Source of the DNA: Candidatus Portnoybacteria bacterium
Lineage (GTDB): Bacteria > Patescibacteriota > Minisyncoccia > Portnoybacterales > GWB1-42-6
Reading direction: 5' to 3'
NCBI GenBank assembly: GCA_028688325.1
Contig: JAQTYI010000002.1
Coordinates: 76,379-140,378 of the forward strand
Length of the DNA stretch: 64,000 nt
Below the pieces are notes generated by a model that had not been told where the DNA came from, did no database searches, and saw only the letters and a program-made list of their open reading frames with translations. Of the stretch, positions 6,484-32,540 are shown one piece after another (positions within the stretch are counted from its first letter, which is position 1; every line of letters starts with the position of its first letter). Both the position numbers and the translations under genes were made by a program.

Positions 6484-8472
6484 TCACAGTTCCGCCGTTT
6501 CCCCCGGCTTCAGGTCTTTCATATCACCCTGACTCGCCGGCTGATTTTTTTGTTCCGGCATTTTTTCCGCGGATCTGGCAACCCCGTAAAATTTATCGTC
6601 CCCGTAGAGCTTTTCGCCACGAGGCGCAGCGCCTGGCGCGGCCGGGCCCACCACTTCATTCAGCGCGCTGCGCAATTCCGACAGATTCGGGCCGGTCCGC
6701 GGTTTTTTGATCGCAAACCTGGCTGGCTCGACGCGAGGGGCAAACTCGGGCATCTTGCGGCCGGTCGCCTCGCTCAGAGAGATGGTCGGGCCGGTTTCTT
6801 TTATGACCGGTCCGCTCTCATTTCTCACTCTTTCGTTAAAACTTTGGCTCTCGCCAAAGCGCTGAGGTGCGCTTTGGCTAATATTTTTCTTCAACCCGTC
6901 AACCTTAGGCGCGCCGGGATTTGGCGCCTGACTGCGGACTTTTATTAAGCAGTCCTTGCAATAAACAGGCCTTACGCCGTCGGGCTTAAAATTCAATTCC
7001 ACTCGCTTGCCGCATTCGAAACATTTGTCAACATATATCGGCCCACCCGCAACGCCAGCAATGCGGCCTGCCTGGCGAAGGGAGCTAACCGGTTGTTTGG
7101 CCAGTTGCGGCCTTTCCGAAGCGCGGCCCTGCGTCTGAGGCAAAGAATATCTTTTTTCGCCTTCTTCGCTTTCTTCTTCCACAAATCCGCTCCAACGCGC
7201 AATCTTCTCTTCCACTTCTTTGCGCGATAAGCCCCCGTAGCGCTCGCGGGAAACTTTGATTATCTTTTCCCGGTGGCTTTTTTCCGTGCGCTCTATCGGC
7301 GCCAGAGTCGTGGCTGAAAACGGCCGCGAGGAAAAACCATTTATCATTAATTTTAAATAAACCTGGGCAAACCCCAAGCCAACCAGGTCGTCAGCGACAA
7401 ATTCCGGCGAAAATTCTTTTTCCAAAAACTCTGCGTCCTCCGCCCCCACGCGAAAAACTATTATCGTGCCCACATTGCCAAAAACCGCGTCGCGCACCCT
7501 GGTGCTGGTGTCTGTAGCCAGCTGCCCGATGTATTGGTGCGCTAAAACAAGATTCAAATGATACTTTCTGGCCTCGGATAAAATATTGGCGAAGCTGTCT
7601 GTGGCAAAATTTTGGAATTCGTCCACATACAGATAAAAATCTTTTCTTTCATTTTCCGGAACATTGACCCGCGACATGGCAGCCAGCTGAATCTTGGTTA
7701 TCATCATGGCGCCAAGCAGCGCCGAAGCGTCCTCGCCGACCTGGCCTTTGGATAAATTCAGTATCAGAACTTTTCCTTCGTCCATCACTTTTCGCGGATC
7801 AATGGTGGATTTGGTCTGGCCCACAATATTGCGAATCAGGGGATTCGTTAAAAATTGCCCGACTTTGTTTTGGATGGGAGAAATGGCCTCCACTTCAAAA
7901 TTACCCTTATATTTTGAAAATTCATCCACCCAAAAACTTTTGACCACCGGATCTTTAACTTTATCCATCACCTTGGCCCGGTATTCTTTGTCCACGAGCA
8001 GCCGCATGATGCCAAGAAGCGTGGCGCCCGGATATTCCAGCAGCGCCAAAACCGCGTTTCGCAAAACATATTCCAAGCGCGGCCCCCAACTCTCGGCCCA
8101 AATCTTCTTGAACACGCCGATGAGCCCTGAAGCCACCAAATGACGGTGTTCGGAATCAACTTGTTCCATAACATTAAAAGCGATGGGGAAATCCATATCC
8201 GCGGGATTGAAATAGATGACATCGTTAACACGGTTGGACGGCACGAAATCTATCATCTTTTCGGCAAAATCGCCATGCGGGTCCACGATCGCCAGGCCCT
8301 TGCCCGCCTGAATATCCTGCTTGGCCATATTTTCCAGCAATGTTGTTTTACCTGTACCGGTTTTTCCCACGATATAAACATGGCGCTGCCTGTCGCCGTT
8401 TTTTATGCCGAACTTGCGCTTTTGGCTGCGAAAATCGGTCTCGCCGATAGTTGTGATATATTCTTCTGCCAT
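6484..8472 (-). CDS. VirD4/TraD/TrwB-like type IV coupling-protein ATPase with a C-terminal C4 zinc ribbon and a GC-rich disordered tail.
   Basis: Walker A VGKTGTGKTTLLENM, Walker B-like LYVDEFQNF, TrwB_AAD-like ARKYHLNLVLAHQYIGQL. Zinc ribbon CFECGKRVELNFKPDGVRPVYCKDC. The last ~150 codons are markedly more GC-rich than the rest of the gene. Confidence 0.6.
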   Translation of the reverse strand: MAEEYITTIGETDFRSQKRKFGIKNGDRQRHVYIVGKTGTGKTTLLENMAKQDIQAGKGLAIVDPHGDFAEKMIDFVPSNRVNDVIYFNPADMDFPIAFNVMEQVDSEHRHLVASGLIGVFKKIWAESWGPRLEYVLRNAVLALLEYPGATLLGIMRLLVDKEYRAKVMDKVKDPVVKSFWVDEFSKYKGNFEVEAISPIQNKVGQFLTNPLIRNIVGQTKSTIDPRKVMDEGKVLILNLSKGQVGEDASALLGAMMITKIQLAAMSRVNVPENERKDFYLYVDEFQNFATDSFANILSEARKYHLNLVLAHQYIGQLATDTSTRVRDAVFGNVGTIIVFRVGAEDAEFLEKEFSPEFVADDLVGLGFAQVYLKLMINGFSSRPFSATTLAPIERTEKSHREKIIKVSRERYGGLSRKEVEEKIARWSGFVEEESEEGEKRYSLPQTQGRASERPQLAKQPVSSLRQAGRIAGVAGGPIYVDKCFECGKRVELNFKPDGVRPVYCKDCLIKVRSQAPNPGAPKVDGLKKNISQSAPQRFGESQSFNERVRNESGPVIKETGPTISLSEATGRKMPEFAPRVEPARFAIKKPRTGPNLSELRSALNEVVGPAAPGAAPRGEKLYGDDKFYGVARSAEKMPEQKNQPASQGDMKDLKPGETAEL

Positions 8473-8585
8473 ATAATATTATAAGATTTGACTGTTGAAT
8501 TCTCTCCGCGCATACGAAAAACTTTAGAACAAAATCGAGATGAGCAAGGCGTAAAATTTGCGTGTTGTGGTGGGGCCCCGACCGT

Positions 8586-8605
8586 CAGGTCGGGGCGTTG
8601 AGGAT
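8586..8605. repeat. GC-rich hairpin (ccccgacc gtca ggtcgggg) between the membrane-partner gene and the VirD4-like gene.
   Basis: Perfect 8-bp stem; no U-tract on either strand. Confidence 0.6.
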
Positions 8606-8668
8606 AGTAAATTTAGACGAGCGAATCCGATTTTGTTAAGGTTTTATCGTCGCGCGGCGGTTTTTCTG

Positions 8669-8696
8669 GTTCTCTTTTGCCCGGGCAAAAGAGAAC
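8669..8696. repeat. 28-bp perfect palindrome gttctcttttgcccgggcaaaagagaac in the same intergenic region.
   Basis: Perfect dyad symmetry. Confidence 0.7.
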
Positions 8697-8737
8697 GAAC
8701 TAATTTCACGATTTCAGGAAGCAAATCCGAGCGATTT

Positions 8738-10015
8738 CTATTTCATGGGTAAGTCCACGGGCGGGCCGCCTTTTTTAACTTCCAGATACGGCGTCATCGG
8801 GCTGCGCACGCCAATAGTCGGGAAGTGAAACAGCGTGGCCAGCTCTTCAATATTCATAATATATCCATTTTCCCAAAACGAACGGGCGCGCATCATTCGC
8901 ATCAAAACCCGCTGCTTATAGGCCTTGCGGCCCTTGGCAAAAAGATAATTGGCCTTGGTGATCGTTGCGGGATCAGGCCTTAAACTATTCATATTCAAAT
9001 TGGCGGTCTGGGCGATAATACCCATGGTCGCCGAAACATTGGCCATGGTAAAAATATCCGACCGGCCGATGTAAACAAAATTAACTTTTGATTCAAAGCC
9101 CTTTTTGCTGGCTTTGAGTTCAATTCCTTGTATAACATCTTTATCTCCCTGGGAAAGATGCATCGCTAAACTGTAGGGCTCGTTTTTGTTGTCTTTTTTG
9201 TCGCGCGGCGGAGCGACATCGCCGAAGATGATAGCGTAAGCGGCATCATAAAAGGCCTCATACCAAGTGCGCGCCTCCATGGCGAAAATGCCTTCTTTCT
9301 TTTCGGGCGGTTTTTTGCCCAGCAATTTGTCGGCTATGGCTTTGGCTTTCTTCTGCCAGACATCGTCAATCGGCCGAAAAAGAATTTGCAGCCAGACCTG
9401 TTCTCCCTGCTTTAATTTGCCGAAAACTTCCATTAAGCCGGCCATCGGGTCGAAAAACGGCTGGTCGGTCTTGGCCACATCTATAAGTTCAACATAAGTT
9501 CTCAAGGGATAGGCGTCTTCATTGGCCATCTTCAAGCGCGCTCCCCATAAATTCCAATTTTTGTTCGGCACATCCGTCGGCACAGACCAGACATAATCCG
9601 GAACTTCCCTGATTTCCGCCTGGGGATATTGCGAATAAATCTGCGCCTCGACCAGATCACGAAATTTGCTTAGCGTGCGCAAATAAAAATGCGCTTCGCC
9701 GTTGATGCCAACCAGTTCAAAGCTGAAATAATCCTGCGTTTTACCTAAAATATATTTCTCGTATTTATATCCCACTGTGCCGATAACGCCCCACAGGCCG
9801 GCGAAAATCTGTTCCATATTTTTGGGCGAGCTTTCCACTTCTTTGGGCGGTTTAACCTCAAGCATGATCCAATCCAGTTGGCGCCACTGCCAGCGCTGAA
9901 TATAATACATCCATGATTTAAAAAAAATAACTGCCAAAAAAATCGGCAGCCATATCCAAGCAACCCTAAAGAAAAAATCCAGAAAGTTTAAATAGACGGT
10001 AAAGATCTCTTGCAT
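8738..10015 (-). CDS. Membrane protein (N-terminal TM segment plus a large soluble domain), co-oriented upstream partner of the VirD4-like ATPase.
   Basis: Hydrophobic N-terminus FFFRVAWIWLPIFLAVIFF; same strand and adjacent to the ATPase gene; no recognisable catalytic motif. Confidence 0.45.
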   Translation of the reverse strand: MQEIFTVYLNFLDFFFRVAWIWLPIFLAVIFFKSWMYYIQRWQWRQLDWIMLEVKPPKEVESSPKNMEQIFAGLWGVIGTVGYKYEKYILGKTQDYFSFELVGINGEAHFYLRTLSKFRDLVEAQIYSQYPQAEIREVPDYVWSVPTDVPNKNWNLWGARLKMANEDAYPLRTYVELIDVAKTDQPFFDPMAGLMEVFGKLKQGEQVWLQILFRPIDDVWQKKAKAIADKLLGKKPPEKKEGIFAMEARTWYEAFYDAAYAIIFGDVAPPRDKKDNKNEPYSLAMHLSQGDKDVIQGIELKASKKGFESKVNFVYIGRSDIFTMANVSATMGIIAQTANLNMNSLRPDPATITKANYLFAKGRKAYKQRVLMRMMRARSFWENGYIMNIEELATLFHFPTIGVRSPMTPYLEVKKGGPPVDLPMK

Positions 10016-10098
10016 TTTTTTAAAAAACTTGGTTTCGCCCTCCTTTTTTTTTGCGGGACGCGCGACGACCTCCGTTTTTTTGAATTATATCAAAAAAC

Positions 10099-10131
10099 AG
10101 ACCGCCTCGCAACAAGCGAGGCGGTCAAAAA
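10099..10131 (-). terminator. Intrinsic terminator downstream of the HARE-HTH gene (A-tract / 11-bp stem / T-tract).
   Basis: gaccgcctcgc aacaa gcgaggcggtc, flanked by A and T runs. Confidence 0.7.
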
Positions 10132-10133
10132 AG

Positions 10134-11207
10134 TTATTTTTTCAGAAGATAGGTTCCGCTGTCCGTGCGGCTGAAAATCTTGCGATTCTGCAAGTTGATC
10201 AAAATCGTATTTTCTTTGACCAGGCGTTTGGCCAAAACATTTTTAACTATTTCCTCTTTGGACAAGGGGCGGTTCTCTTTTTTCAAAAGTTGAACGATGG
10301 TTTGCGCCACGGTGCCCGGCTCATATCCCCATTCGGCCAAAGCATAGAGCCCCCGGCCCACCAGAACAAACCGCTTGTCTTTTATCAGTTCGTTGTGCAC
10401 GGTCTGCATATAGGCCTGGCGGCCAGACGGCAAAACCTTGTTTATTTCCGCCGTGACTTCCGAAAAATGCAGAGGTTTGCCGGCGTTTTTCAAGACGATA
10501 TAGGCCTTGTCTTTCACGCCGCGAGGACTGATCTCCGGCCAATGAACCAGGCCAAAATGACCCAGATGATTTTGTTCTATATTTTTGGAAGCGTCAACAT
10601 AGGAATGGACGGCCTTGGGAGAAAGCTCCGGGAACAGGACCTTGGCCGCGGACAAAAGTTCTTCTTTGCTCAAAACCTGCTTTTTGCCTTCCATGTGCTT
10701 AGCCAAAGAATCCACGGTTTTTTTTGCCGTTTTGACGGAGTTTTTGCTGCTGGTCCAGACGGAATAAAACTGGTCGCTTTCCGGCAAGCGCTCAAATTTG
10801 TTGCCCAGCGACATGATGAAATAGAAAGCCGAATGGCATTTGTCGAGAACGGACAAATCGCCTTCTTTTTTCATTCGCTCAATTTCTTTGACCGGAAAGC
10901 AAACATAGGTCAAATCATCATAAAGTTTGTGTTCTTTTTTCAGCTCACCGTGTTCCTTCATATGGTTCTCCACGGTCTTAAAAACCGGCTGAAATTTATC
11001 CATTATTTTGGCCTGTTTCAAAGTGGCCAGGCCCCCTTCCTCTATTTGGCGCACGCGCTCACGGGTAATGCCGTGGTCATTGCCGATTGCCTCCAGGGTG
11101 TGGCGCTTGCCGTCTTTCAGCCCAAAACGCCGCACAATCACCTCTTTGGTGCGGCTATTGGGGATAATCTGTATGGCCTCGTTGACTAAATTTAATATAT
11201 TCTGCAT
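10134..11207 (-). CDS. Sigma-70 region-4-like HTH protein with a C-terminal HARE-HTH (RpoE/delta-like) winged-helix domain.
   Basis: N-terminal RRFGLKDGKRHTLEAIGNDHGITRERVRQIE (region 4 signature). C-terminal HFSEVTAEINK ... KRFVLVGRGLYALAEWGY (HARE-HTH pattern). Confidence 0.6.
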   Translation of the reverse strand: MQNILNLVNEAIQIIPNSRTKEVIVRRFGLKDGKRHTLEAIGNDHGITRERVRQIEEGGLATLKQAKIMDKFQPVFKTVENHMKEHGELKKEHKLYDDLTYVCFPVKEIERMKKEGDLSVLDKCHSAFYFIMSLGNKFERLPESDQFYSVWTSSKNSVKTAKKTVDSLAKHMEGKKQVLSKEELLSAAKVLFPELSPKAVHSYVDASKNIEQNHLGHFGLVHWPEISPRGVKDKAYIVLKNAGKPLHFSEVTAEINKVLPSGRQAYMQTVHNELIKDKRFVLVGRGLYALAEWGYEPGTVAQTIVQLLKKENRPLSKEEIVKNVLAKRLVKENTILINLQNRKIFSRTDSGTYLLKK

Positions 11208-16429: not shown

Positions 16430-19108
16430 TTATTTTCCACAACACTTCTTATATTTCTTGCCGCTCCCACAAGGGCAAGGATCATTGCGCCCCACTTCCC
16501 CGTCTTTTTTCTCGGCCACAACCTGGCCAGAAATGATATTTTTAACTTCTCGCCTTTCAGCCGCCTGCTCGCTCATTATGCCGACTTTATAAATAGAGCC
16601 GACAAAGCTGCTCTGGATTGCGCCCAGCAGGCGCTGAAAAAGGCGCATGCCTTCGTTTTTATATTCCACCAGCGGGTCTTTCTGGCCGTAGGCGCGCAGT
16701 TTTACAGAATGGCGCAGATGCTCCATTTCGTCCAAGTGCTCCATCCAGAACATATCGATGGTGCGCAAATAGAACATTTTCTCGATTTCGCGCATACTGG
16801 CCTCACTGACCTCTTTTTCTTTTGTCTCGTAGGCCTGCCTGGCCGAATCGGACAAATATTTTTCCAGCTCTTCCTTGTTTTTAATTTCGGCCATCTTCTG
16901 CTCAGCATCGCTGGGCAGATTAAAGATCGCTTTGACACCCTCCTGAATTTCCGCCAGATTCCAATCCTCGCGATAATCGCCTGGCGCGTGAAAATCGATG
17001 ATCTTGGTTATTTCTTTATCGATTATTCCCAAAACCTCATCGCGCAAGCTATCGGATTCCAAAACTTCCAGCCGCTTGCGATAGATGGTTTCGCGCTGCT
17101 TATTCATCACATCGTCATATTCCAGAACATGCTTGCGAGTATCGAAATTAAAGCCCTCTATCTTGGCCTGCGCGTTCTCGATGGCGCGGGAAATCATTTT
17201 ATTCTCGATGGGCTGGTCTTCCGGAATCTGCATAACTTCCATCAGCCGTTTAATTTTATCGGGTGCAAAAATGCGCATCAGGTCGTCTTCCAGCGAAACG
17301 AAAAATTGCGAAGAGCCGGCGTCCCCCTGGCGGCCGGAGCGGCCGCGCAGCTGATCATCGATGCGCCGCGCTTCGTGGCGCTCAGTGCCGATGATATGCA
17401 AACCGCCGAGCGCGACAACTTCGTCGTGTTCTTTTTGCCAATTGTTTAAATCTCCCTCTTCGAGTCCTGTCGGCCTAACCCCTCCTAAAGGAGGGGAACC
17501 CGCATCGCCGCTCCCTCCCTTTAGGGAGGGCTGGGGAGGATTTTCATCAGGTCTTCCACCAAGAATAATATCCACGCCGCGGCCCGCCATATTGGTCGCC
17601 ACCGTCACCCCGCCCTTGCGGCCGGCCTTGGCGATTATCTGCGCTTCCCGCTCGTGGTTTTTGGCATTCAACAATTCATGCGGAATGCCTTCTTTTTTCA
17701 AAAATTGGCTTAATAGTTCATTTTTTTCTATGGAAACCGTTCCCACCAGCACCGGCTGGCCCGCGTCGTGCCGGTTTTTTATCTCCCGCGCCACGGCGAC
17801 AAATTTCCCGTGTTCGGTGCGATAAATGCTGTCGGGCATATCCACGCGCACCATCGGCTGATTGGTCGGCACGATAACGACATCCAATTTATAAACTTTA
17901 GAAAATTCCTCGGCGGATGTTAAAGCCGTGCCGGTCATGCCGGACAGTTTTTTATACAAGCGGAAATAATTCTGGAAAGTTATCGTCGCCAAGGTGCGCG
18001 ATTCTTTCTGCACGGGCACCCCTTCTTTGGCTTCCAAGGCCTGATGCAAACCTTCGCTGTAGCGGCGGCCCTGCATCAAGCGGCCCGTAAATTCATCAAC
18101 GATTATTATTTCGCCGTCTTTCACGACATAATCTTTGTCGCGCTTGAAAAGCGCTTGCGCGCGCAGCGCCTGCTCCAAGTGGTGCGCGTATTTTATCCCG
18201 CCTTCGGTATAGATATTTCCCATGCCCAAAATCTTTTCCACCTTATCTATGCCCTCTTCCGTCAAAGTGGCGGCGCGCATTTTTTCATCGAGATTGTAAT
18301 CAACATTTTCAACAAGACGCGGAGCGATTTTAGAAAAGGTCTCGTATAGTTTTCCCGAATCCTCGTCCGGCGCGGAAATTATCAAAGGCGTGCGCGCTTC
18401 GTCTATCAATATCGAGTCCACTTCGTCCACTATGGCAAAGTTATGTTTGCGCTGAGACATATCTTTCAATTCAGCCACCATATTGTCGCGCAGATAATCG
18501 AAACCGAATTCGTTGTTGGTACCGTAAGTGATGTCGGCGGCATAGGCCTCGGGCCGGCGGACTTCTTTTAGATTCGCCATCTCCACCGTAATCTCGTTCT
18601 TGTCCAACACCACGGGTTCATATATATAGGATCTTTCGTGTTGCAGGCAACCCACGGAAAGCCCCAACAAATTAAAAACCGCGCCCATCCAGTTGGCATC
18701 GCGCTTGGACAGATAATCGTTCACCGTAACAACATGCGCGCCTTTTCCTTCAAGCGCGTTAAGATATATCGCCAAAGTGGCGGTTAAGGTTTTTCCTTCG
18801 CCCGTTTTCATTTCGGCAATCTTGCCTTCATGCAAAACCATTCCGCCGATAAGTTGCGCGTCAAAATGCCGCTGGCCCAAAGCTCTTTTGGCCGCCTCGC
18901 GCGTCAGCGCGAAGGCCTCCGGCAAAATTTCATCCAGCGTTTGACCTTTTTGCAAACGCTCCCTGAGCTCCTGTGTTTTGTTTTTCAATTCCTCAACCGA
19001 AAAACGCCCGAACTCCGGTTCAAGCTTGTTTATCTGTTCAACGATGGTTTCGTATTTGGCAATGCTCCCCCCGCCCGCGTTGCCGAAAAAATTAGTTAAA
19101 AACGACAT
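16430..19108 (-). CDS. secA: Preprotein translocase ATPase SecA, with an in-frame palindromic-repeat insertion.
   Basis: Full SecA architecture (DEAD motor motifs, PPXD, HWD/HSD) and C-terminal zinc finger CPCGSGKKYKKCCG. Insert NPPQPSLKGGSGDAGSPPLGGVRPTGLEEGD encoded by 17478-17538. Confidence 0.95.
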   Translation of the reverse strand: MSFLTNFFGNAGGGSIAKYETIVEQINKLEPEFGRFSVEELKNKTQELRERLQKGQTLDEILPEAFALTREAAKRALGQRHFDAQLIGGMVLHEGKIAEMKTGEGKTLTATLAIYLNALEGKGAHVVTVNDYLSKRDANWMGAVFNLLGLSVGCLQHERSYIYEPVVLDKNEITVEMANLKEVRRPEAYAADITYGTNNEFGFDYLRDNMVAELKDMSQRKHNFAIVDEVDSILIDEARTPLIISAPDEDSGKLYETFSKIAPRLVENVDYNLDEKMRAATLTEEGIDKVEKILGMGNIYTEGGIKYAHHLEQALRAQALFKRDKDYVVKDGEIIIVDEFTGRLMQGRRYSEGLHQALEAKEGVPVQKESRTLATITFQNYFRLYKKLSGMTGTALTSAEEFSKVYKLDVVIVPTNQPMVRVDMPDSIYRTEHGKFVAVAREIKNRHDAGQPVLVGTVSIEKNELLSQFLKKEGIPHELLNAKNHEREAQIIAKAGRKGGVTVATNMAGRGVDIILGGRPDENPPQPSLKGGSGDAGSPPLGGVRPTGLEEGDLNNWQKEHDEVVALGGLHIIGTERHEARRIDDQLRGRSGRQGDAGSSQFFVSLEDDLMRIFAPDKIKRLMEVMQIPEDQPIENKMISRAIENAQAKIEGFNFDTRKHVLEYDDVMNKQRETIYRKRLEVLESDSLRDEVLGIIDKEITKIIDFHAPGDYREDWNLAEIQEGVKAIFNLPSDAEQKMAEIKNKEELEKYLSDSARQAYETKEKEVSEASMREIEKMFYLRTIDMFWMEHLDEMEHLRHSVKLRAYGQKDPLVEYKNEGMRLFQRLLGAIQSSFVGSIYKVGIMSEQAAERREVKNIISGQVVAEKKDGEVGRNDPCPCGSGKKYKKCCGK
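17478..17538. repeat. Two GC-stem hairpin units inserted in frame in secA, encoding PPQPSLKGGSGDAGSPPLGG.
   Basis: cccctcctaaaggagggg and ccctccctttagggaggg; same architecture and same PxLKGG peptide as the alaS units. Confidence 0.7.
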
Positions 19109-19177: not shown

Positions 19178-19178
19178 T

Positions 19179-19216
19179 CTTGGACACTTTTACGCTATAG
19201 CGTAAAAGTGTCCAAG
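19179..19216. repeat. 38-bp perfect palindrome, copy 1 (cttggacacttttacgctatagcgtaaaagtgtccaag), abutting the secA -35.
   Basis: Perfect dyad symmetry. Core cacttttacgctatagcgtaaaagtg is shared with copies 2 and 3. Confidence 0.8.
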
Positions 19217-19258
19217 AGACAGCCGACAACAACTTCTCTATCCCTCCAGTATGGACTC

Positions 19259-19852
19259 CTACACATTAAAATATTTTTTTAATCTTTTGTCGATATCTTT
19301 AATGTCCGACTCCAGATATAGAATATCATCGCCGACTCCAAAAAAATCCGAAATAAAATCAATCTCTTTTTTGCAGTCAAATGGATAAATAAAAACACTT
19401 TTCTGAAGCTGCAGCATCCTCAAATTTTTGAATTTAGAGCGCAAAGCATCTCTGGCTTGTTTTTTATCTTCTGGTATGTCAAAAATTATTACCCGCCATT
19501 TGCCGTCCCATCGCTTATCGTTTTTTAATTCAATCCTATCGACATCATATTTTAATAATTCTTCCCGGCCTTTTTTCGTTAAAATCATCTCTGCCCGCCC
19601 ACCCCTCATTTTTCTTTTTATTAATTTTCTTTTTTCTAACCGGCCGACATATCGCCTGGCGCTTGACCGGTTGAAATTTTTCCAAGAAACATAATTTTCG
19701 TCTTTTAATAAAAAACTAAAAGCTGACACCGCGTTAGGCGCCGCTATCGCCGCCAACAAAACCCCGCCCATCCCCAAAAACTTCAGAATGGCCTTAGCTG
19801 AAAAAGCGTCCGAATCTTTATTTAATTCCTTTATTTTATCAAATATTCTCAT
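19259..19852 (-). CDS. Small regulator-like protein: hydrophobic N-terminus, winged HTH, and a C-terminal Cas2-like/PaaX_C-like ferredoxin fold.
   Basis: RRYVGRLEKRKLIKRK ... ILTKKGREELL (wHTH-like). WRVIIFDIPEDKKQARDALRSKFKNLRMLQLQKSVFIYPFD ... ILYLE closely matches the Cas2/PaaX C-terminal signature. Confidence 0.5.
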   Translation of the reverse strand: MRIFDKIKELNKDSDAFSAKAILKFLGMGGVLLAAIAAPNAVSAFSFLLKDENYVSWKNFNRSSARRYVGRLEKRKLIKRKMRGGRAEMILTKKGREELLKYDVDRIELKNDKRWDGKWRVIIFDIPEDKKQARDALRSKFKNLRMLQLQKSVFIYPFDCKKEIDFISDFFGVGDDILYLESDIKDIDKRLKKYFNV

Positions 19853-19950: not shown

Positions 19951-19998
19951 ATCATCCTGGACACTTTTACGCTATAGCGTAAAAGTGTCCAGGATGAT
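19951..19998. repeat. 48-bp perfect palindrome, copy 2 (atcatcctggacacttttacgctatagcgtaaaagtgtccaggatgat).
   Basis: Perfect dyad. Located between the divergent PaaX/Cas2-like gene and the 146-aa gene. Confidence 0.8.
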
Positions 19999-20056: not shown

Positions 20057-20085
20057 TTGACAAGTTGATAAAAAGATTCTATACT
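20057..20085 (+). promoter_or_regulatory. Consensus sigma70 promoter (TTGACA-17-TATACT) for the 146-aa gene.
   Basis: ttgaca agttgataaaaagattc tatact. Confidence 0.7.
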
Positions 20086-20150
20086 GTACTGCGTTGACTT
20101 ATCCGGCTCTTTTTATCTGAAAATATATACCAAACCAACAAGGAGGAATT

Positions 20151-20591
20151 ATGGATGCGAAAGAAAAACAGTTCGGAGAGATTAACACCGTGCTTGCCAA
20201 AGAGCTTGAACATCACGCCAGGCCAGGCAGAAGCATGATGGGGCCGCGCTTCAAGATGACATTCTATTTTTCCTTTGCTCACCTGTCCGACGGGCGCCGT
20301 ATCAATATGGTTTCCAAGGTAACGGGAATCCCGGTTGCGGAGCTGCGCGAATACCGCGAATTCCGCAAAACGGAAATCCCGCGATTGCTCAAAAAGATAT
20401 TCTTGGAAAATCCGGATTTGGCTCCAAGCAACAAAGAAATCCAAAATGGCAGCGCCTGGGGCGATATGCAACCAGAGTTTTCCAAAAAGATGAGCGTTTG
20501 GGCAAAAAAGACCAGTATCAATTTCCACATCATCCGCGCCGTCTGGGACGAAACACTGCCCAGCAAACGCCAAAAGATCTTTGGAAATTAA
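20151..20591 (+). CDS. Hypothetical 146-aa protein with a possible internal HTH (INMVSKVTGIPVAELREYREF), expressed from its own strong promoter and terminator.
   Basis: SD AAGGAGG 4-5 nt before ATG; sigma70 promoter at 20057-20085; intrinsic terminator at 20611-20645; no recognisable family. Confidence 0.5.
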   Translation: MDAKEKQFGEINTVLAKELEHHARPGRSMMGPRFKMTFYFSFAHLSDGRRINMVSKVTGIPVAELREYREFRKTEIPRLLKKIFLENPDLAPSNKEIQNGSAWGDMQPEFSKKMSVWAKKTSINFHIIRAVWDETLPSKRQKIFGN

Positions 20592-20850: not shown

Positions 20851-20890
20851 TCTTGAGCACTTTTACGCTATAGCGTAAAAGTGCTCAAGA
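20851..20890. repeat. 40-bp perfect palindrome, copy 3 (tcttgagcacttttacgctatagcgtaaaagtgctcaaga), with compensatory arm changes (ggacac>gagcac, gtgtcc>gtgctc).
   Basis: Perfect dyad; same core; the left flank ttttatcatc is shared with copy 2. Confidence 0.8.
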
Positions 20891-25309: not shown

Positions 25310-26434
25310 TTATCTTTTTTCGTAATCCGGCCACCAATAAAGACCCTTATCTTCCTTTTTTAACTGACCCATAAATTCTTCTCGGCGCAGATACAATTTT
25401 TTCTGCACTCTGGGGTTGGCCTCAGAAAGAGCATAAGAAAAAAGAATGGGTGAAGCAATGGTGACATCAGCATAAACCACCACGGTGTTTTGCAGCTCGT
25501 TAGGATTGACTTTTCCCCAAGAAACAGCTTCCGAAGGGGTGGCGCCGGAAAGCCCGCCCCATTGCGGCGAATCCATGGTTATCTGAATAAAATAATCGTG
25601 TCCGCCCCGCTCAATGCCCAAGCACTCCCAAAGCATGGGCTGGGTTTGCATATAAAAATTTTTGGGGCTGCCGCCGCCCAAAATTATCGCCCCGTTCTGT
25701 TTGGCGCACATTACAATCGCGGCGGTTTCCAAAACATCAAGATTGGGATCGATGGTTAAATTGATGCCATCTGGCACATAAGAAGCCATATTCATGCCCA
25801 AAGTGGAATCGCCCGGCGAAGAGGTGTAAATGGGAATATTCAGTTTGGCCGCTTGCGCCAAAATGGAAATTTCCGGATTTTTAGCTTTGGCCAAAAGCTT
25901 GCGGCCGATATAATGGTGCAGTTCGCAAGAAGAAATGGCTCCTCTGGGCGCGTCTTTTTCAAAAGACGTGATCTGATCAAGAAATTTATCGGTTCTTATC
26001 AAAGTGTCGGCCCCCAGATAAGTATCGTAAATCCTCACAATCCCGTTTTTCCAAAGCGTCGCGTCATCTATATTAAAGACGCCTTTATGCAAATTCAAAC
26101 CCAGAGCAAAATGCATATCATGATAAAGATTGGCGCCGGTGGAGATAATGAAATCTATAAAACCCGCTTTCATCATGGAAACAATCATGCCCGACATGCC
26201 GGCCGGCGTGAGCGCTCCGGCCATGGTCAAACAAATAGTAGCCGAGTTTTGCGACTTTAACATTTTACGCGTCAATAATTGACAGGCCTCGCTCAAGCGG
26301 GCGGAATTATAGGATTGAAAATAACCGTCGACTAATTTTTTAATGCTTAGATTTTTTTTCAGCTCGCGTGCTTCTATTTTGCGTCCGCTCAAAAAATTCT
26401 GTCTTAGCGACTTTCGTTTTTTCTTTTTAGCCAT
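25310..26434 (-). CDS. Deoxyhypusine synthase-like protein (paralog 1).
   Basis: DHS-family pattern IISTGANLYHD, ILGGGSPKNFY and a C-terminal WGK; about 45% similar to paralog 2. Confidence 0.65.
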   Translation of the reverse strand: MAKKKKRKSLRQNFLSGRKIEARELKKNLSIKKLVDGYFQSYNSARLSEACQLLTRKMLKSQNSATICLTMAGALTPAGMSGMIVSMMKAGFIDFIISTGANLYHDMHFALGLNLHKGVFNIDDATLWKNGIVRIYDTYLGADTLIRTDKFLDQITSFEKDAPRGAISSCELHHYIGRKLLAKAKNPEISILAQAAKLNIPIYTSSPGDSTLGMNMASYVPDGINLTIDPNLDVLETAAIVMCAKQNGAIILGGGSPKNFYMQTQPMLWECLGIERGGHDYFIQITMDSPQWGGLSGATPSEAVSWGKVNPNELQNTVVVYADVTIASPILFSYALSEANPRVQKKLYLRREEFMGQLKKEDKGLYWWPDYEKR

Positions 26435-27269
26435 AAATATAGCATATCAGCTTATAGATTAATTTAGCCACTAAAAAATCCGGCGCGTGAAGGCCTTTTA
26501 TCGGCGCCAATTCCACGAAGTCCGCGCCGATAATGGTTTTTTTGGCGCAAACCGCCCGCAAAATATTTATCGCTTCATACCAGTCCAGCCCGCCGGGCTC
26601 GGGCGTGCCGGTTGACGGCATTATGCCACAGTCAAACACATCAACATCAAACGATATATAAACTTTATTCTTGAGGCCCTCTACTATTTCTTCAATTTGC
26701 CATTTCTTTTTATCTTTGGCCCAAAAAGTTTTTATGCGGCTTTGATTTTTCTCCCAAAAATTAAGCTCGTCGTTTTCGTTGCTGATGTTTCTGATTCCCA
26801 CCTGCACTAAATTTATCCCGAGATAATCGAGGGACCGGCGCATAGCCGCGGCGTGAGAATATTTTTTTCCCAAATATCCGTCGCGTAGATCGGCGTGCGC
26901 GTCAAATTGCAAGATGCTAAAATCATCAAAGCCGGATTTTTTGTATTGGCCAATAATGAATTGTGTTATGCTGTGTTCTCCGCCTAGAATTATCGGTAAT
27001 TTTTTATTTTTAAGCGAATCGCCGACAATCGCTTCCATCTTTTTAATATTCTTCGGTTCCTTAACCGTCTCGATGGCGACTTTTTTATATGTCTCTTGCC
27101 AAAGCTCTTCGTCAAAAAGTTCCACTTGCGAGCTGGCTTTAATTATGGCTCCAGGGCCCTTATCCGCCCCGCCGCCATAAGTCGTCGTCGCTTCAAAACC
27201 AAAAGGCACAATTATAACTTGCGCCTCCCGCCCGAGCCCTTCTTTGATATCTAAGAAATTTTTTGCCAC
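26427..27269 (-). CDS. speB: Agmatinase (arginase/ureohydrolase family).
   Basis: ILGGEHSIT, FDAHADL, SFDVDVFDCG ... TGTPEPGGL manganese-binding motifs. Confidence 0.8.
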   Translation of the reverse strand: MAKNFLDIKEGLGREAQVIIVPFGFEATTTYGGGADKGPGAIIKASSQVELFDEELWQETYKKVAIETVKEPKNIKKMEAIVGDSLKNKKLPIILGGEHSITQFIIGQYKKSGFDDFSILQFDAHADLRDGYLGKKYSHAAAMRRSLDYLGINLVQVGIRNISNENDELNFWEKNQSRIKTFWAKDKKKWQIEEIVEGLKNKVYISFDVDVFDCGIMPSTGTPEPGGLDWYEAINILRAVCAKKTIIGADFVELAPIKGLHAPDFLVAKLIYKLICYIYG

Positions 27270-27279
27270 AAAAAATAAA

Positions 27280-28449
27280 TTACAATTTGCTATTTTTCAA
27301 TAAGCCGTTTTTCTTTTTTCCTTTGTCAAAATACGCTTTCAGCGTATGTTTGCGCAACGCTTTGTCCAAAAGCGCCACCGCTTCTTCTCGCTGATCGAAC
27401 AAGCGCCTCGGCTCCTTCTCCAGTCCTTCCTGCATCAATGCGTGAACAATAAAAGGAAAAACAGCTGTGACATCGGATAAAACATATTGCGAATTTTTCA
27501 CGCATTCCTCCGATGTCTTGCCCCAAGTATGGGCTTCTGAGGCAGTACAAGAAGACAGACCGCCGTTTTGCACATGCGCGTCGCAAATCTGCACATCGGT
27601 GTCATAGCCGCCGACATCCAAGTCGCAAATTTGCGCCAGATACGGCTCCGGCTGCAACGAATAATTTTTTGGCACGCCCCCGCCTAAAATTATGATGGAA
27701 AGTTTTTTGCTGAATTTATTCTTGGCCAAATAATGATATGCGCCGAATTCATGAATATCGTCTTCCAGGTTAATTCCGAAATGGTATTTATGCCCCAGCT
27801 TTTTTTTCAAAAACGCTAAATTCAAAAAAATGGAGCCGTCCTGCGGGGCGCCGCAAAATATCGGCACGCTATTGCGATAGGCCTGCACCAGAATGCTGCG
27901 GTTCAAATCGGCGCGCTTGAATCGCCTGTTACCAAACCGCGCCAGATGCCTGCCCAACAGATAATGAAATTCCGTTGTAGTCATTTGTTTGGCAAAATCC
28001 GGCCGCCGCACCAAGTCCACCACCAAATTATCCGTTTCCCAAAGATCGTCTTCCGGAAACCCCGTATCATATATCCTGGTCCAGCCGGCCTTGCGCAGCT
28101 TTATGTCGCATTGATTCGGATTCACCTCATACCAATTATCGCTTTCCTGCCGCTGCAGATCATGATAAAGATTGGCGCCGGTGGTCGTGATGATATCTAC
28201 CAAGCCGGATTTTATCAGCGGGATGATGCAGGAAACGCCAAAATCCGCCGGTGTCATCGCGCCCGACAACGCCAAAACAATAGTATGATCTTTTTCGATC
28301 ATCCGCCTGATTATCTGGTAGGCATTTTTCACTTCGCGCCCCACATAGGCGCCAAACGCCTTCTCAAGGAGTTGCGCGGTGGTTTCATTGCCCGTGATGG
28401 GTTCGGACAACACTCTTTTGCCCACCAGCCGCTTGGTTAAATGTTTCAT
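27280..28449 (-). CDS. Deoxyhypusine synthase-like protein (paralog 2).
   Basis: ITTTGANLYHD, ILGGGVPKNY, WGKT; DHS family. Confidence 0.65.
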   Translation of the reverse strand: MKHLTKRLVGKRVLSEPITGNETTAQLLEKAFGAYVGREVKNAYQIIRRMIEKDHTIVLALSGAMTPADFGVSCIIPLIKSGLVDIITTTGANLYHDLQRQESDNWYEVNPNQCDIKLRKAGWTRIYDTGFPEDDLWETDNLVVDLVRRPDFAKQMTTTEFHYLLGRHLARFGNRRFKRADLNRSILVQAYRNSVPIFCGAPQDGSIFLNLAFLKKKLGHKYHFGINLEDDIHEFGAYHYLAKNKFSKKLSIIILGGGVPKNYSLQPEPYLAQICDLDVGGYDTDVQICDAHVQNGGLSSCTASEAHTWGKTSEECVKNSQYVLSDVTAVFPFIVHALMQEGLEKEPRRLFDQREEAVALLDKALRKHTLKAYFDKGKKKNGLLKNSKL

Positions 28450-28484
28450 TCTACAAACAAGCCCCTCCGGCTATATTTAGTTTT

Positions 28485-29075
28485 TTAGCTGTGGCCGTTG
28501 CCATTTGTTTCTTTTTGCTCCAAATAGCTTGGCAAAATGAAAACTGCCGCGGCCAGCACAGTAGTCCATGACCCGTCTTTATTGCCAATGGCCGATTGAG
28601 TAATATTGGTCGTTTTAACGATTTTGCCGCTCATCTTATACAAGTCCTCCCGTTCGTCCCAGGCGGTATTGGGATCAAATTCTATGCCGAGCGTTGAAGC
28701 CAACATGGAAGCGGCCAAATCCTCGGCATATTCGCCCGCTTTTTGGTCGGTCTCGCCGAAAGAATGATGCTCTGAAAGATAACCGTATTGCTGTTCTCCC
28801 TCCGCCGGCACGGCGCAGCCGACCGAAGCAGCAATCAAGCGGTTGGCTTCATTGGTGGCGTTGCGGCTCATAACGCAATAGATTATTTGCCCGGGATGAA
28901 TTAATTTTAAGCCGTCTTCTTTGGAAATGCGCTTGCAGCCCGGCGGAAATATGCTGGAAACCGTCACTAAATTGAAAGGAGCGATGCCGGCGTCGCGCAA
29001 GGCCATTTCAAAAGAAGTCAGATATTCTTTATGAACTCCCACCCCTTTTGTAAAAAATACTCTGCTCGGAACCAT
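28485..29075 (-). CDS. pdaD: Pyruvoyl-dependent arginine decarboxylase.
   Basis: [13 protein letters not shown] ... [25 protein letters not shown]: PdaD signature including the SS cleavage site. Confidence 0.8.
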
Positions 29076-30752: not shown

Positions 30753-32540
30753 CTATCTTAACACCTCCGCTCCCGTCTTATACAAATCTCTTTCTCTCGC
30801 ATTTACTATATATACCATATTCCAACTCCGGCCGGAATCGGCAAATTGTTGCGCGCTCATATTCAACCAATGCTTGGTGCCGTCGCCGTTGATCTCATAA
30901 ACCCGCGCATCGCCGTCCGCCCGCACCAGCCAGGCATCTTGATAAAAATTAAGCTGCTCCGGCGCCACCTCGATGACATTTTGCCACCCCAAATGCGGAT
31001 AGGCCGACAGAATTTGCGGCGTCTGCAGCCAGCGCCGATAATTTCCTTTTATGATGAACACTTTTTCTTCGCCCTTGGCGCGGATCAAAGAACCGTCGGG
31101 AAAATTCGGGTTCGCAGGCCGCAGTTCAGGCAAAGGCGCAACGCTCGGCTCCGGCGACAAAGGCGAAATTAAGAAAGGCGGCAGCTGGTTGTCCGCTGTT
31201 GTTTTAACGGTATAAGAAAATTGGCGGGCCGGATCGCTGGCCGAAAAATTGGAATTTTTTGTCTGGCTGGACAAAATCAAAATTACGCGCACGACCTGAT
31301 TGCCGAATCTTTCCACTATGGTTGCCGCCAATCGAGCCGAGTCGAAAGACAGCGGGCGGACGCTTTTTGCGCCATTATTTTCAATGATCACCAGCGCCGC
31401 CTGCCAGTTGGCCGCGCCTGCGCCTTGAATTTTAACCATTAAATTCAGGCCGCTTCCTTGCGGCAATATTTCATACCACCGGCCAGCCCAGTCCTTTATC
31501 GCGTCGGAAAAAGTAAATTCCATTCCTTCGCGCACGCTCAAAAGATTACTCATTTGGGGACTGACATGCAACCGCTCATAAGGCAAAAGGGGGCTTAAAT
31601 AACAATATTTCTGGCCCTCGCCTATTTGGCAATCGTCAATATAATCGGCGATTATCCAATTGGCGAAAACATCCCCGAAGCGCTCGGAAAATCCGCCGTC
31701 GGCCAAGGCCTGATCTATGCTGGCGATGCCCACCGCCTCGGTTTTCATCATGCGCGTCAAGATCTGCTCGCCGTAGCGGTTTACCAGATATTGCATGAAA
31801 AGATTGGCTGCGCCGTAATCGGAAAACTCATTTTGCCACTCGGTCAAAGAATCGGTCGGGTAGCGCAAAAAATCTTTCACCCGCCGTTCCAAGTTGCTGC
31901 CCGAATACGGGCTGTCGTAGCCGCAAAGGGATGAAGCGTATTCGGAGCGCGCCTCATTCAGCCAAACATCTTCCACGCTGTTGCGCAATTTTTCTTTTTG
32001 GTAAAAGTTTATCATATGCTGAAATTCGTGCGCCAAAAAATCCTTGGCCGAAGACGAAGCGGCATACGAAGAATTTAAATAGAGAATTTCTCGCTCGTTG
32101 GAATTGGCAATCTGCGCCCGCGGATATTCGTCGAACGAATTGAAATAGCCGCCGGCCCCCTTTCTTATTTTGGTAATCAAAACAACGACGCGCAGATCGT
32201 TATCAATGCCCGGCGACCATTCGGAACCGTAAACCTTGGTCAGCCGGGGATAGATCGTTTTATCAAATTCAACGGCTAAATTTAAAATTGCCGCGCCGGC
32301 ATCCTCTTTTTCCACCGGCCCCGATTCGGACCACCAATCGTTGGCCGCGTAAAACAGAGCGTGGTCGCCAACCTGCAAAAGAGTGGCACTAACTTGCGTG
32401 CGCCCGAGAAGATCATAAGCGGTATCCACGAAAAAGGTTTTGTTCTCGCCCATATCAAAAGCCAGCGCGTTTCCCGCGCATAAAAAACCGCCAAAAACCA
32501 TTCCTGCGACCAACCATGAAAATTTGTTTTTTTTCGCCAT
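30753..32540 (-). CDS. Secreted protein with an HExxH zinc-metallopeptidase-like motif.
   Basis: N-terminal signal peptide MAKKNKFSWLVAGMVFGGFLCAGNALA; LAHEFQHMINF. Confidence 0.45.
   Translation of the reverse strand: MAKKNKFSWLVAGMVFGGFLCAGNALAFDMGENKTFFVDTAYDLLGRTQVSATLLQVGDHALFYAANDWWSESGPVEKEDAGAAILNLAVEFDKTIYPRLTKVYGSEWSPGIDNDLRVVVLITKIRKGAGGYFNSFDEYPRAQIANSNEREILYLNSSYAASSSAKDFLAHEFQHMINFYQKEKLRNSVEDVWLNEARSEYASSLCGYDSPYSGSNLERRVKDFLRYPTDSLTEWQNEFSDYGAANLFMQYLVNRYGEQILTRMMKTEAVGIASIDQALADGGFSERFGDVFANWIIADYIDDCQIGEGQKYCYLSPLLPYERLHVSPQMSNLLSVREGMEFTFSDAIKDWAGRWYEILPQGSGLNLMVKIQGAGAANWQAALVIIENNGAKSVRPLSFDSARLAATIVERFGNQVVRVILILSSQTKNSNFSASDPARQFSYTVKTTADNQLPPFLISPLSPEPSVAPLPELRPANPNFPDGSLIRAKGEEKVFIIKGNYRRWLQTPQILSAYPHLGWQNVIEVAPEQLNFYQDAWLVRADGDARVYEINGDGTKHWLNMSAQQFADSGRSWNMVYIVNARERDLYKTGAEVLR

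Follow-up and report, generated by a model that had tools for sequence, protein, structure and literature searches.

The described systems closest to the one reported here are the type IV coupling proteins (T4CPs) TrwB (R388), VirD4 and TraD, P-loop ATPases with an N-terminal transmembrane (TM) domain, a class that shares ancestry with FtsK. According to Quinonero-Coronel et al. 2025 (PMC12102498), Patescibacteria possess a phylum-specific type IV secretion system (T4SS) whose relatives are monoderm conjugation systems and in which a relaxase is mostly absent. The same survey found 5713 VirD4-type T4CP homologs in 2918 Patescibacteria genomes, just 148 of them near virB4, and left their function open; it also noted that TrsD of the pGO1-type T4SS, a stand-alone protein resembling the VirB4 N-terminal region, is abundant in the phylum and mostly lies beside virB4 (PMC12102498). 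In Sulfolobales, the VirD4-like ATPase CedD serves DNA import and lacks its TM domain in some species (PMC11823120). Here we analyze a 64,000-nucleotide stretch of Candidatus Portnoybacteria bacterium (assembly GCA_028688325.1, contig JAQTYI010000002.1, positions 76,379 to 140,378; hereafter the window), chromosomal DNA of a Parcubacteria-type Patescibacterium, in which two neighboring minus-strand genes encode a VirD4-like ATPase (6484-8472, 662 aa) and, upstream of it, a membrane protein of the family DUF8128 (PF26449; 8738-10015, 425 aa).

We propose that these genes specify a split T4CP of the kind carried by monoderm and archaeal conjugative elements, a reading that we consider moderately probable. 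What is new here is the partner's predicted VirB4-like fold, the split and fused forms of the architecture, its chromosomal conservation across the phylum, the conserved motifs in the ATPase tail, and the recognition of the hairpins between the two genes as a separate element. Our literature search found no description of the split DUF8128/ATPase architecture and no mention of DUF8128. A preliminary description of this DNA, made from the sequence alone, had reported two co-oriented genes with the membrane protein upstream and a 265-bp spacer between them, and our analysis confirms these coordinates.

Results

By its profile matches, the ATPase is assigned to the type IV coupling-protein (TrwB/VirD4/TraD) class and not to the HerA/FtsK class. 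Its best and longest Pfam match is TrwB_AAD_bind (59.3 bits against a cut-off of 20.5, E 4e-16, aa 25-344), which covers profile positions 11-312 of 387, and the cut-offs of T4SS-DNA_transf (28.9 bits against 20.1), TraG-D_C (28.5 against 22) and the generic central domain DUF87 (32.1 against 23.2) are likewise exceeded. The only solved structures related to it by sequence in the PDB are TrwB (1e9r, the best at E 7e-7) and DotL, and an NCBI protein from Candidatus Portnoybacteria that is 100% identical to it and encoded on a 788,852-bp contig bears the name 'type IV secretion system DNA-binding domain-containing protein'. In an alignment of 45 homologs, neither Walker A (GKTGTGKT, aa 36-43) nor Walker B (YVDEFQNF, with D284 and E285) varies. 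These motifs, the TrwB_AAD_bind match and the relationship to TrwB and DotL bear out the preliminary description, which had called the protein a VirD4/TraD-like coupling ATPase and had proposed profile searches that might instead assign it to HerA or FtsK; no such assignment emerged.

The protein divides into four regions, all encoded on the minus strand: a TrwB/VirD4-class nucleotide-binding domain with a putative all-alpha insertion (aa 1-440, 7153-8472), delimited from the Pfam matches, PDB relatives and Walker motifs; a variable acidic and polar linker (aa 441-478, 7039-7152) that aligns poorly, varies in length and is modeled with pLDDT below 50; a treble-clef zinc ribbon (aa 479-515, 6928-7038); and a disordered tail rich in Pro, Ala, Gly, Glu and Lys (aa 516-662 with the stop codon, 6484-6927), recognized by composition, motifs and disorder. 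No hydrophobic segment precedes Walker A at aa 36, and the N-terminal TM anchor of other T4CPs is thus absent. The AlphaFold2 (AF2) model is poor overall (mean pLDDT 59.6), with confident structure at aa 45-310 and in the zinc ribbon (about 90); in this low-confidence model, a helical block at aa 107-232 lies between the core strands.

That the pair represents a HerA/FtsK-type helicase, a defence-island NTPase or the remnant of an integrated conjugative element appears extremely improbable. The DUF87 match, weak matches to nSTAND and HerA_C, and two plasmid-borne relatives described below, one fused and lying among CHAT and TPR genes and the other a stand-alone core among transposases, would suit such an origin. 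However, TrwB_AAD_bind is the best and longest match, HerA_C (18.5 bits against 22), nSTAND and the AAA families stay under their Pfam cut-offs, and FtsK_SpoIIIE and AAA_10 do not match the protein in Pfam; neither the HerA/FtsK-specific domain set nor a NurA-type nuclease partner was found at the locus. Synteny is moreover kept across lineages without an integrase or relaxase, and the family is essentially absent from viral contigs, where 2.9 million contigs yielded one partial match, at a contig edge. On that result we also reject a phage or mobile origin of the pair.

The DUF8128 protein combines an N-terminal TM helix with a cytoplasmic domain and a Pro-rich tail (...PPxxLP), and its conserved motif is NIEELATLFHFPT. 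The 425-aa protein itself drew no match in local Pfam or NCBIfam scans; PF26449 is assigned to 118 of the 120 homologs listed, including those 97% and 82% identical to it. The family holds 3357 representatives (50% clustering, E <=1e-3), the best 150 of which are all stand-alone proteins of 340-550 aa, and a genome scan placed it in at least 581 species genomes from many Patescibacteria lineages (Azam-, Moran-, Yanofsky-, Terry-, Sung-, Niyogi-, Uhr-, Kerfeld-, Buchanan-, Kuenen-, Magasanik-, Lipton- and Portnoybacteria).

An AF2 model built from 42 sequences (pLDDT 82.2, pTM 0.75) predicts a long N-terminal helix (aa 2-46) with the hydrophobic core VAWIWLPIFLAVIFF, followed by an alpha/beta domain. 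When this model was searched with Foldseek, the top 13 hits were all TrwK/VirB4 chains (E 5e-5 to 6e-4, probability 0.99-1.00); entries containing EccE3 came after them with much weaker scores. Two independent structure searches concur that, among known folds, the modeled one comes closest to the TrwK/VirB4 ATPase. Because DUF8128 has no P-loop and its best target-normalised TM-score (0.31) is to a 457-residue TrwK chain, we read the match as probably to the VirB4 N-terminal domain, which in VirB4 joins the ATPase ring to the membrane via VirB3. DUF8128 brings its own TM helix, as VirB3-VirB4 fusions do; unlike VirB4, it has no CagE_TrbE_VirB/VirB4 sequence match, and its associated ATPase is VirD4-class. 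A PDB profile search and tblastn against plasmids returned no relatives of DUF8128, and fold and profile-profile comparison alone revealed them. The preliminary description had rightly seen a single-TM membrane protein here and was incomplete, since the protein also carries this TrwK/VirB4-like domain.

We called open reading frames (ORFs) at 86 loci and compared them by phmmer with seven proteins of the window, a query set that leaves relaxase or mating-pair genes undetectable; exact-protein look-ups supplied six loci and the genome scan the other 80, and the comparison covered the 64-kb window of this genome and +/-6 kb around the other loci. Two loci lie at a contig edge, and in 80 of the 84 informative ones the DUF8128 gene is followed directly by the co-oriented ATPase gene, which settles the question of partner conservation that the preliminary description had raised. 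A median of 16 nt separates the two genes, which often overlap, and the 265 nt of the window is the largest gap seen. At four loci a lytic transglycosylase gene takes the place of the ATPase gene (L024:2628-3602, L064:7150-8037, L081:1875-2771 and L086:6307-7347); it is of the YceG/MltG type in three of them and carries G5 and DPBB domains in one.

The usual order is secD-secF-(sigma-r4/HARE-HTH)-DUF8128-ATPase, and the order through efp-mnmA recurs across loci; at the 86 loci these conserved secDF, efp and mnmA neighbors take up most of the flanking sequence. In the window the minus-strand neighbors are alaS and mnmA on one side of the pair and, on the other, the sigma-r4/HARE gene, secF, secD, two NUDIX genes, Ham1 and secA; efp lies on the plus strand. 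As the preliminary description had stated, the window contains no VirB4, relaxase or pilin gene, a statement that holds for the roughly 33 ORFs scanned with Pfam, with about 18 ORFs of at least 150 aa outside the scan. On this distribution, we read the pair as a vertically inherited chromosomal core module of Patescibacteria and not as a mobile element.

The proximity of secD and secF, which lie upstream in most loci and adjoin DUF8128 directly in six of the approximately ten loci (of 86) that lack the sigma-r4/HARE gene, together with the presence of secA in the window, raises the possibility that the pair is a Sec-linked accessory to protein export, either an EccE/EccC-like (type VII-like) module or a Sec-associated ATPase. 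We consider this very unlikely. About a quarter of the 86 loci have no secDF upstream, synteny is weak evidence in small, little-rearranged genomes, and the ATPase matches T4CP profiles and not EccC or FtsK_SpoIIIE; no WXG100-type or other type VII genes (ESX components) were seen, and the likeness of DUF8128 to EccE is far weaker than its likeness to VirB4.

Fused versions of the pair support a split T4CP. A tblastn search of plasmids with the ATPase matched 613 records, including plasmids of Bacillus, Streptomyces, haloarchaea and Sulfolobus. On the Bacillus subtilis plasmid NZ_OX419581 the match falls within a 913-aa 'DUF87 domain-containing protein', of which residues 56-312 align with the DUF8128 profile (hhalign probability 97.3%, E 2e-11, 252 columns), pairing ILNIEELSGIVRFPS with ILNIEELATLFHFPT, and residues ~323-760 align with the ATPase (26% identity, E 8e-21). 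The gene adjoins a replication-relaxation relaxase, followed by a 'conjugal transfer protein', TcpD, TcpE and a large ATP-binding protein. A groundwater contig (L135:575-3022, minus strand) encodes in one frame a single 815-aa ORF made up of a TM helix, DUF8128 (E 2e-16, motif STEELASVFHFPT) and the ATPase (42.6% identity, E 4e-99).

In both fusions the two halves are homologous to the window proteins and stand in the same order, with an EELAxxxHFP motif at the junction, and the L135 protein shares the N-terminal TM helix of DUF8128. The window genes can therefore be read as the N- and C-terminal parts of one architecture. Unlike the window pair, the fusions are single polypeptides with neither the zinc ribbon nor the motifs of the tail; the Bacillus protein further differs in its long acidic C-terminus, its relaxase and Tcp-type neighbors, and an annotated ORF without an N-terminal TM helix. 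A weaker match links DUF8128 to the N-terminal region of a T4CP-like homolog on a haloarchaeal plasmid (probability 63.6%, E 7e-5, including SELAGVVHL), and the N-terminal portions of the ATPase homologs from Bradyrhizobium, Sulfolobus pTC and Rhodococcus gave no detectable match to DUF8128.

The TM-less T4CP-like core also circulates outside conjugation contexts. The Sulfitobacter plasmid NZ_CP081110 carries a 395-aa stand-alone core, 42% identical to the window ATPase, among transposases (L088:6980-8167), and on a Bradyrhizobium plasmid CHAT and TPR genes surround the gene for a 708-aa relative whose N-terminal region is unrelated (L089:6098-8224).

The relatives of the pair also bear on another explanation, that it is an autonomous, membrane-tethered DNA translocase independent of any T4SS, serving either uptake in transformation with ComEC and type IV pili or an FtsK-like clearing or segregation of DNA. 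We regard this as rather unlikely. The pair is near-universal, vertically inherited and set in a housekeeping context with no T4SS genes nearby, the common ancestry of T4CPs and FtsK is established, and the zinc ribbon and basic motifs would suit nucleic-acid binding; a VirD4-like ATPase of Sulfolobales functions in the import of DNA (PMC11823120), and exaptation of t4cp 'cannot be ruled out' according to the authors of the Patescibacteria survey (PMC12102498). Yet no competence or division genes are adjacent, no channel-forming partner was found, FtsK is reported in at least one Saccharibacterium, where there would be no gap to fill, and the closest relatives in architecture, the fusions, lie beside relaxase and conjugation genes.

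Behind the ATPase domain, the CFECGK...CKDC segment that the preliminary description had identified as a C4 zinc ribbon matches zf_Tbcl_2 (PF23477; 34.5 bits against a cut-off of 27, E 1.6e-8, aa 483-510) and scores just short of the cut-off for TIGR04272 in NCBIfam (33.4 bits against 36). Its pattern is CxxC-x17-CxxC, and the four cysteines (C484, C487, C505 and C508) and the sequence FKPDGVRPVYC are unchanged across the 45 aligned homologs, so that the identification stands. A strict regular expression found the ribbon in 39 of 71 complete ATPases from distant loci, many of which terminate in a PG(E/Q)x(I/V)xF or LRxxL motif. Used as the sole query for other protein contexts, the zinc ribbon and tail returned just two C-terminal fragments.

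The tail had been described as about 150 aa long, GC-rich and of low complexity, and as perhaps recently acquired or expanded by repeats. It is indeed GC-rich, at 0.58 against 0.451 for the window, within the top 0.08% of 441-nt windows, because its composition is rich in Pro, Ala and Gly (also Arg). It is not of low complexity, as three motifs are conserved in the 45 homologs, (S)EPVIKETGxxISLSEA, KKxRxxxxLSELRxxLxEV and a C-terminal LKPGExxEL, with variable linkers between them; the AF2 model leaves the tail disordered except for two short helices that coincide with conserved motifs. Nor is a recent origin tenable, since the motifs are family-wide, there are no tandem repeats, and most of the GC excess falls on the first two codon positions (0.558 as against 0.447 for the core; third position 0.626 against 0.561). 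On sequence grounds, the tail appears to be an old, functional, disordered interaction region.

The spacer between the two genes contains a structure of a different kind. On the plus strand, 8506-8699 is occupied by one copy of a structured element, conserved, dispersed and about 195 nt long, that is defined by 40 metagenome homologs and covariation. It consists of a long imperfect hairpin (8506-8657) closed by CCGCGC/GCGCGG and interrupted by a large conserved internal loop, with an apical stem-loop (8575-8596, 9-bp stem, 4-nt loop); a T-run at 8661-8665, within CGG-TTTTT at 8658-8665; and a second hairpin, a 14-bp perfect palindrome at 8669-8696. Of the two perfect hairpins reported in the preliminary description, that at 8669-8696 was placed exactly and the other, given as 8586-8605, was 10 nt off; the claim that they lack U-tracts holds on the gene strand and fails on the plus strand, where the T-run follows the long hairpin.

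The spacer RNA folds far better than shuffled sequences (z -5.6), in a window where perfect hairpins with stems of at least 8 bp are enriched throughout (33 observed against 7.4 expected) and 16 of the 33 fall in its 13% of intergenic sequence. An exact search of metagenomes with the 22-nt apical stem-loop gave 90 matches, of which 40 share conserved sequence with the window on both sides (L094-L181; 37 distinct sequences including that of the window); in the others the stem recurs in unrelated settings, at times as an ordinary terminator. The apical helix is invariant among the copies solely because it served as the search key. An exact search with the 14-bp palindrome found nothing in metagenomes, and its sequence differs between copies while its pairing persists.

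On the gene strand, RNAalifold (27 sequences) predicted 48 pairs at -45.7 kcal/mol, and compensatory changes occur at 28 of these. Pairing extends to 94.4% of cells, compared with 83.0% in shuffled alignments, and double-sided changes occur at 28 pairs against 18.2, neither value being reached in any of 500 shuffles, with slid controls at 42-54% paired. The plus strand gives 60 pairs at -62.8 kcal/mol, 32 with compensatory changes and three invariant G-U pairs.

We interpret the spacer element as a lineage-specific insertion outside the ancestral structure of the gene pair. At a relative whose protein is 97% identical, the spacer is 180 nt of different sequence, and in others it is 60, 47, 23 or 59 nt; the genes flanking the element differ between loci. 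These observations, with the median gap of 16 nt, lead us to reject the proposal that the hairpins are attenuation or processing sites of the operon, and the element says nothing on regulation common to the DUF8128-ATPase family. The 180-nt spacer of the 97%-identical relative (L004:7279-7458) bears its own hairpin (GCCCCGCTTTAGCGGGGC) at the same site, and the element copies L122 and L148 contain a nested extra hairpin (CTCGCCCCGTTAGA...TCTAACGGGGCGAG), which suggests a modular family of intergenic hairpin units. A copy of the element lies just upstream of the L135 fusion gene.

Several explanations compete for this element. We tentatively give close to an even chance to a mobile palindrome that inserted here, either resembling REPINs, ERICs or MITEs or derived from an IS200/IS605-type element; the rivals are a small structured RNA gene antisense to the operon and a terminator module for antisense transcription. 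The same unit of about 195 nt between unrelated gene pairs at 40 other metagenome loci, and its absence from the same spacer in relatives at 97% identity and below, favor mobility. The orientation bias, with both neighbors antisense to the better-folding strand at about 27 loci, as in the window, and otherwise disposed at five, would be expected from strand-specific single-stranded-DNA transposition or from an RNA; the tight packing of the element between the upstream stop codon and the downstream start and its strong covariation suit these readings, as does the better folding of the plus strand, with its invariant G-U pairs and following T-run.

Against mobility stand a low apparent copy number, with one copy in the 64-kb window, none by sequence profile in about 1 Mb of other Patescibacteria loci and two on one 386-kb contig, and a conservation across samples beyond what a selfish repeat would suggest; neither a target-site duplication nor a conserved target motif, terminal inverted repeats or a transposase link was found, and viral contigs yielded no copy. 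Transcription of the element finds little help in its flanks (72% A+T), which hold no conserved promoter and a -10-like hexamer upstream at 11 of 27 loci. Like REPIN/BIME, ERIC and Correia-type repeats, the element is an intergenic imperfect palindrome in the 150-200-nt range that lies inside operons and shows orientation bias and compensatory stem changes; unlike them, it has an apparently low copy number, very high conservation across organisms and a large conserved internal loop, and it lacks the transposase link, terminal inverted repeats and target duplication. An Rfam search of 8440-8760, with E up to 10, returned just chance-level matches (E 0.37 and 2.1). The element is a well-supported, conserved structure absent from Rfam, and in these little-studied bacteria it would represent either a novel small RNA or a mobile palindromic element of a new type.

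Directly upstream of DUF8128 in most loci, and at 10134-11207 on the minus strand in the window, lies a gene for a 357-aa protein with sigma-70 region 4 and HARE-HTH domains, identified by Pfam and NCBIfam. Its HARE-HTH domain is RNA polymerase delta-like, and the protein may belong to the module as a DNA-binding third component or be merely syntenic. Between it and the DUF8128 gene, a consensus scan marked two overlapping minus-strand features within 10084-10126: a terminator-like hairpin with an 11-bp stem and T-run (10126-10100) and, just upstream of the DUF8128 gene, a TG-extended promoter-like site, TTGCGA-17-TATAAT.

Elsewhere in the window, which contains no tRNA and no Rfam family at the gathering threshold, a perfect palindrome of 40-48 nt with the core TCTTGGACACTTTTACGCTATAGCGTAAAAGTGTCCAAGA occurs in three copies (19178-19217, 19951-19998 and 20851-20890) that flank an unannotated 164-aa ORF (20079-20573) and a small gene (19259-19852) whose product has a PaaX_M (Cas2-like) domain; these copies could be operator sites or repeat elements. 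Short perfect hairpin pairs of G/C runs, about 35 nt apart, occur in coding sequence at 2619-2676 (alaS) and 17479-17530 (secA), for example CCCCCCTTTAAAAGGGGGG with CCCCCCTTATGCAAAAGGGGGG and CCCCTCCTAAAGGAGGGG with CCCTCCCTTTAGGGAGGG. A polyamine gene cluster on the minus strand (25310-29075) comprises two deoxyhypusine-synthase-like genes (25310-26434 and 27280-28449), a pair of paralogs unusual in a reduced bacterial genome, together with an agmatinase/arginase-family gene (26427-27269) and a pyruvoyl-dependent arginine decarboxylase gene (28485-29075). Three large minus-strand ORFs without a Pfam match (30753-32540, 595 aa; 43146-44852, 568 aa; 44872-46884, 670 aa) lie in or beside a glycan-biosynthesis region with sugar transferase, DegT aminotransferase, carbamoyltransferase, methyltransferase, asparagine synthase and radical SAM genes.

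Discussion

We favor a model in which the DUF8128 protein and the ATPase together act as a single T4CP. DUF8128 would contribute a single membrane-spanning helix and a cytoplasmic TrwK/VirB4-like module, which also resembles EccE of type VII systems, and the ATPase would be a TrwB/VirD4-class P-loop motor whose own anchor was lost or never existed. With its N-terminus outside and its C-terminus inside, a topology that fits the positive-inside rule because IQRWQWRQ follows the helix, DUF8128 may tether the ATPase ring, presumably a hexamer, to the cytoplasmic membrane, and it would thereby stand in for the VirB3/VirB4-N-terminal module or for the transmembrane domain of a T4CP. A substrate or adaptor may be recruited by the zinc ribbon and the motifs of the tail, and ATP hydrolysis would drive or gate the delivery of that substrate, which is most likely nucleic acid or nucleoprotein, into a membrane channel. 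The most likely partner machinery would be the phylum's relaxase-less chromosomal T4SS, with its genes at another site of the genome. A role of the pair in DNA transfer or uptake, which the preliminary description had suggested, is plausible from the sequence.

Comparison with described coupling proteins and their archaeal counterparts shows both the basis of this model and the ways in which the locus departs from them. The ATPase shares with TrwB, VirD4 and TraD a P-loop domain that matches TrwB_AAD_bind, T4SS-DNA_transf and TraG-D_C and keeps Walker A and B, and its C-terminal extension with conserved terminal motifs recalls the TraM-binding tail of TraD. Unlike those proteins, it has a zinc ribbon and no N-terminal TM domain, it is chromosomal and vertically inherited, its putative anchor and a TrwK/VirB4-like domain of about 380 residues come from a separate upstream gene, and the pair shows no linkage to relaxase or T4SS genes among the scanned window ORFs. 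CedD and TedD are, like the window ATPase, VirD4-like and encoded apart from the rest of their system, and among their orthologs are some without a TM domain, for which anchoring by other factors has been suggested; they serve the import of DNA, not its export. They differ in being archaeal, their NCBIfam match to the window ATPase is confined to the P-loop region, and neither a DUF8128 partner nor a zinc ribbon is known for them.

Several observations weigh against a split T4CP. Six single helices are unlikely to make a channel, and another membrane component would be needed. The resemblance of DUF8128 to TrwK/VirB4 comes with TM-scores that differing domain orientations keep low (0.32-0.35), its assignment to the N-terminal domain is indirect, drawn from the missing P-loop and the TM-score, and no sequence-level link to VirB4 N-terminal families was found in Pfam, NCBIfam or PDB profiles. 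The ATPase matches NCBIfam equivalogs partially and far under their cut-offs (SXT_TraD 56.6 against 366, CD1115 42 against 250, CedD 39 against 600), TIGR00929 reaches it at the P-loop alone (19.5 bits against 643), and the confidence of its model is low outside aa 45-310 and the zinc ribbon. The transglycosylase genes at four of the 84 informative loci show that DUF8128 can be followed by another gene, and no T4SS, relaxase, pilin or competence genes were found among the scanned ORFs of the window or in the Pfam-annotated neighborhoods of related loci, so that coupling to a T4SS is argued from the literature. Lastly, the t4cp gene of Ca. Southlakia epibionticum, which may or may not be linked to DUF8128, is non-essential, and other T4SS genes there are essential (PMC12102498).

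A bolder version of the split T4CP, which we consider distinctly unlikely, would make the pair a hitherto unrecognised, phylum-wide coupling protein in which a VirD4-class motor docks via a VirB4-N-terminal-like module and so links the VirB4 and VirD4 families. Under this version the pair would be kept as a core function to feed the essential relaxase-less T4SS of these epibionts or to import host nucleic acid by way of it, with the zinc ribbon and tail as substrate receptor.

Thousands of 'orphan' VirD4-like genes in Patescibacteria lie far from T4SS loci, and their role is acknowledged to be unknown (PMC12102498). Our findings indicate that such ATPases, at least in Parcubacteria-type lineages, make an obligate two-gene unit with DUF8128. 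The orphan ATPases would thereby gain a concrete architecture and a domain of unknown function a role, and the finding bears on the relationship between the VirB4 and VirD4 ATPases.

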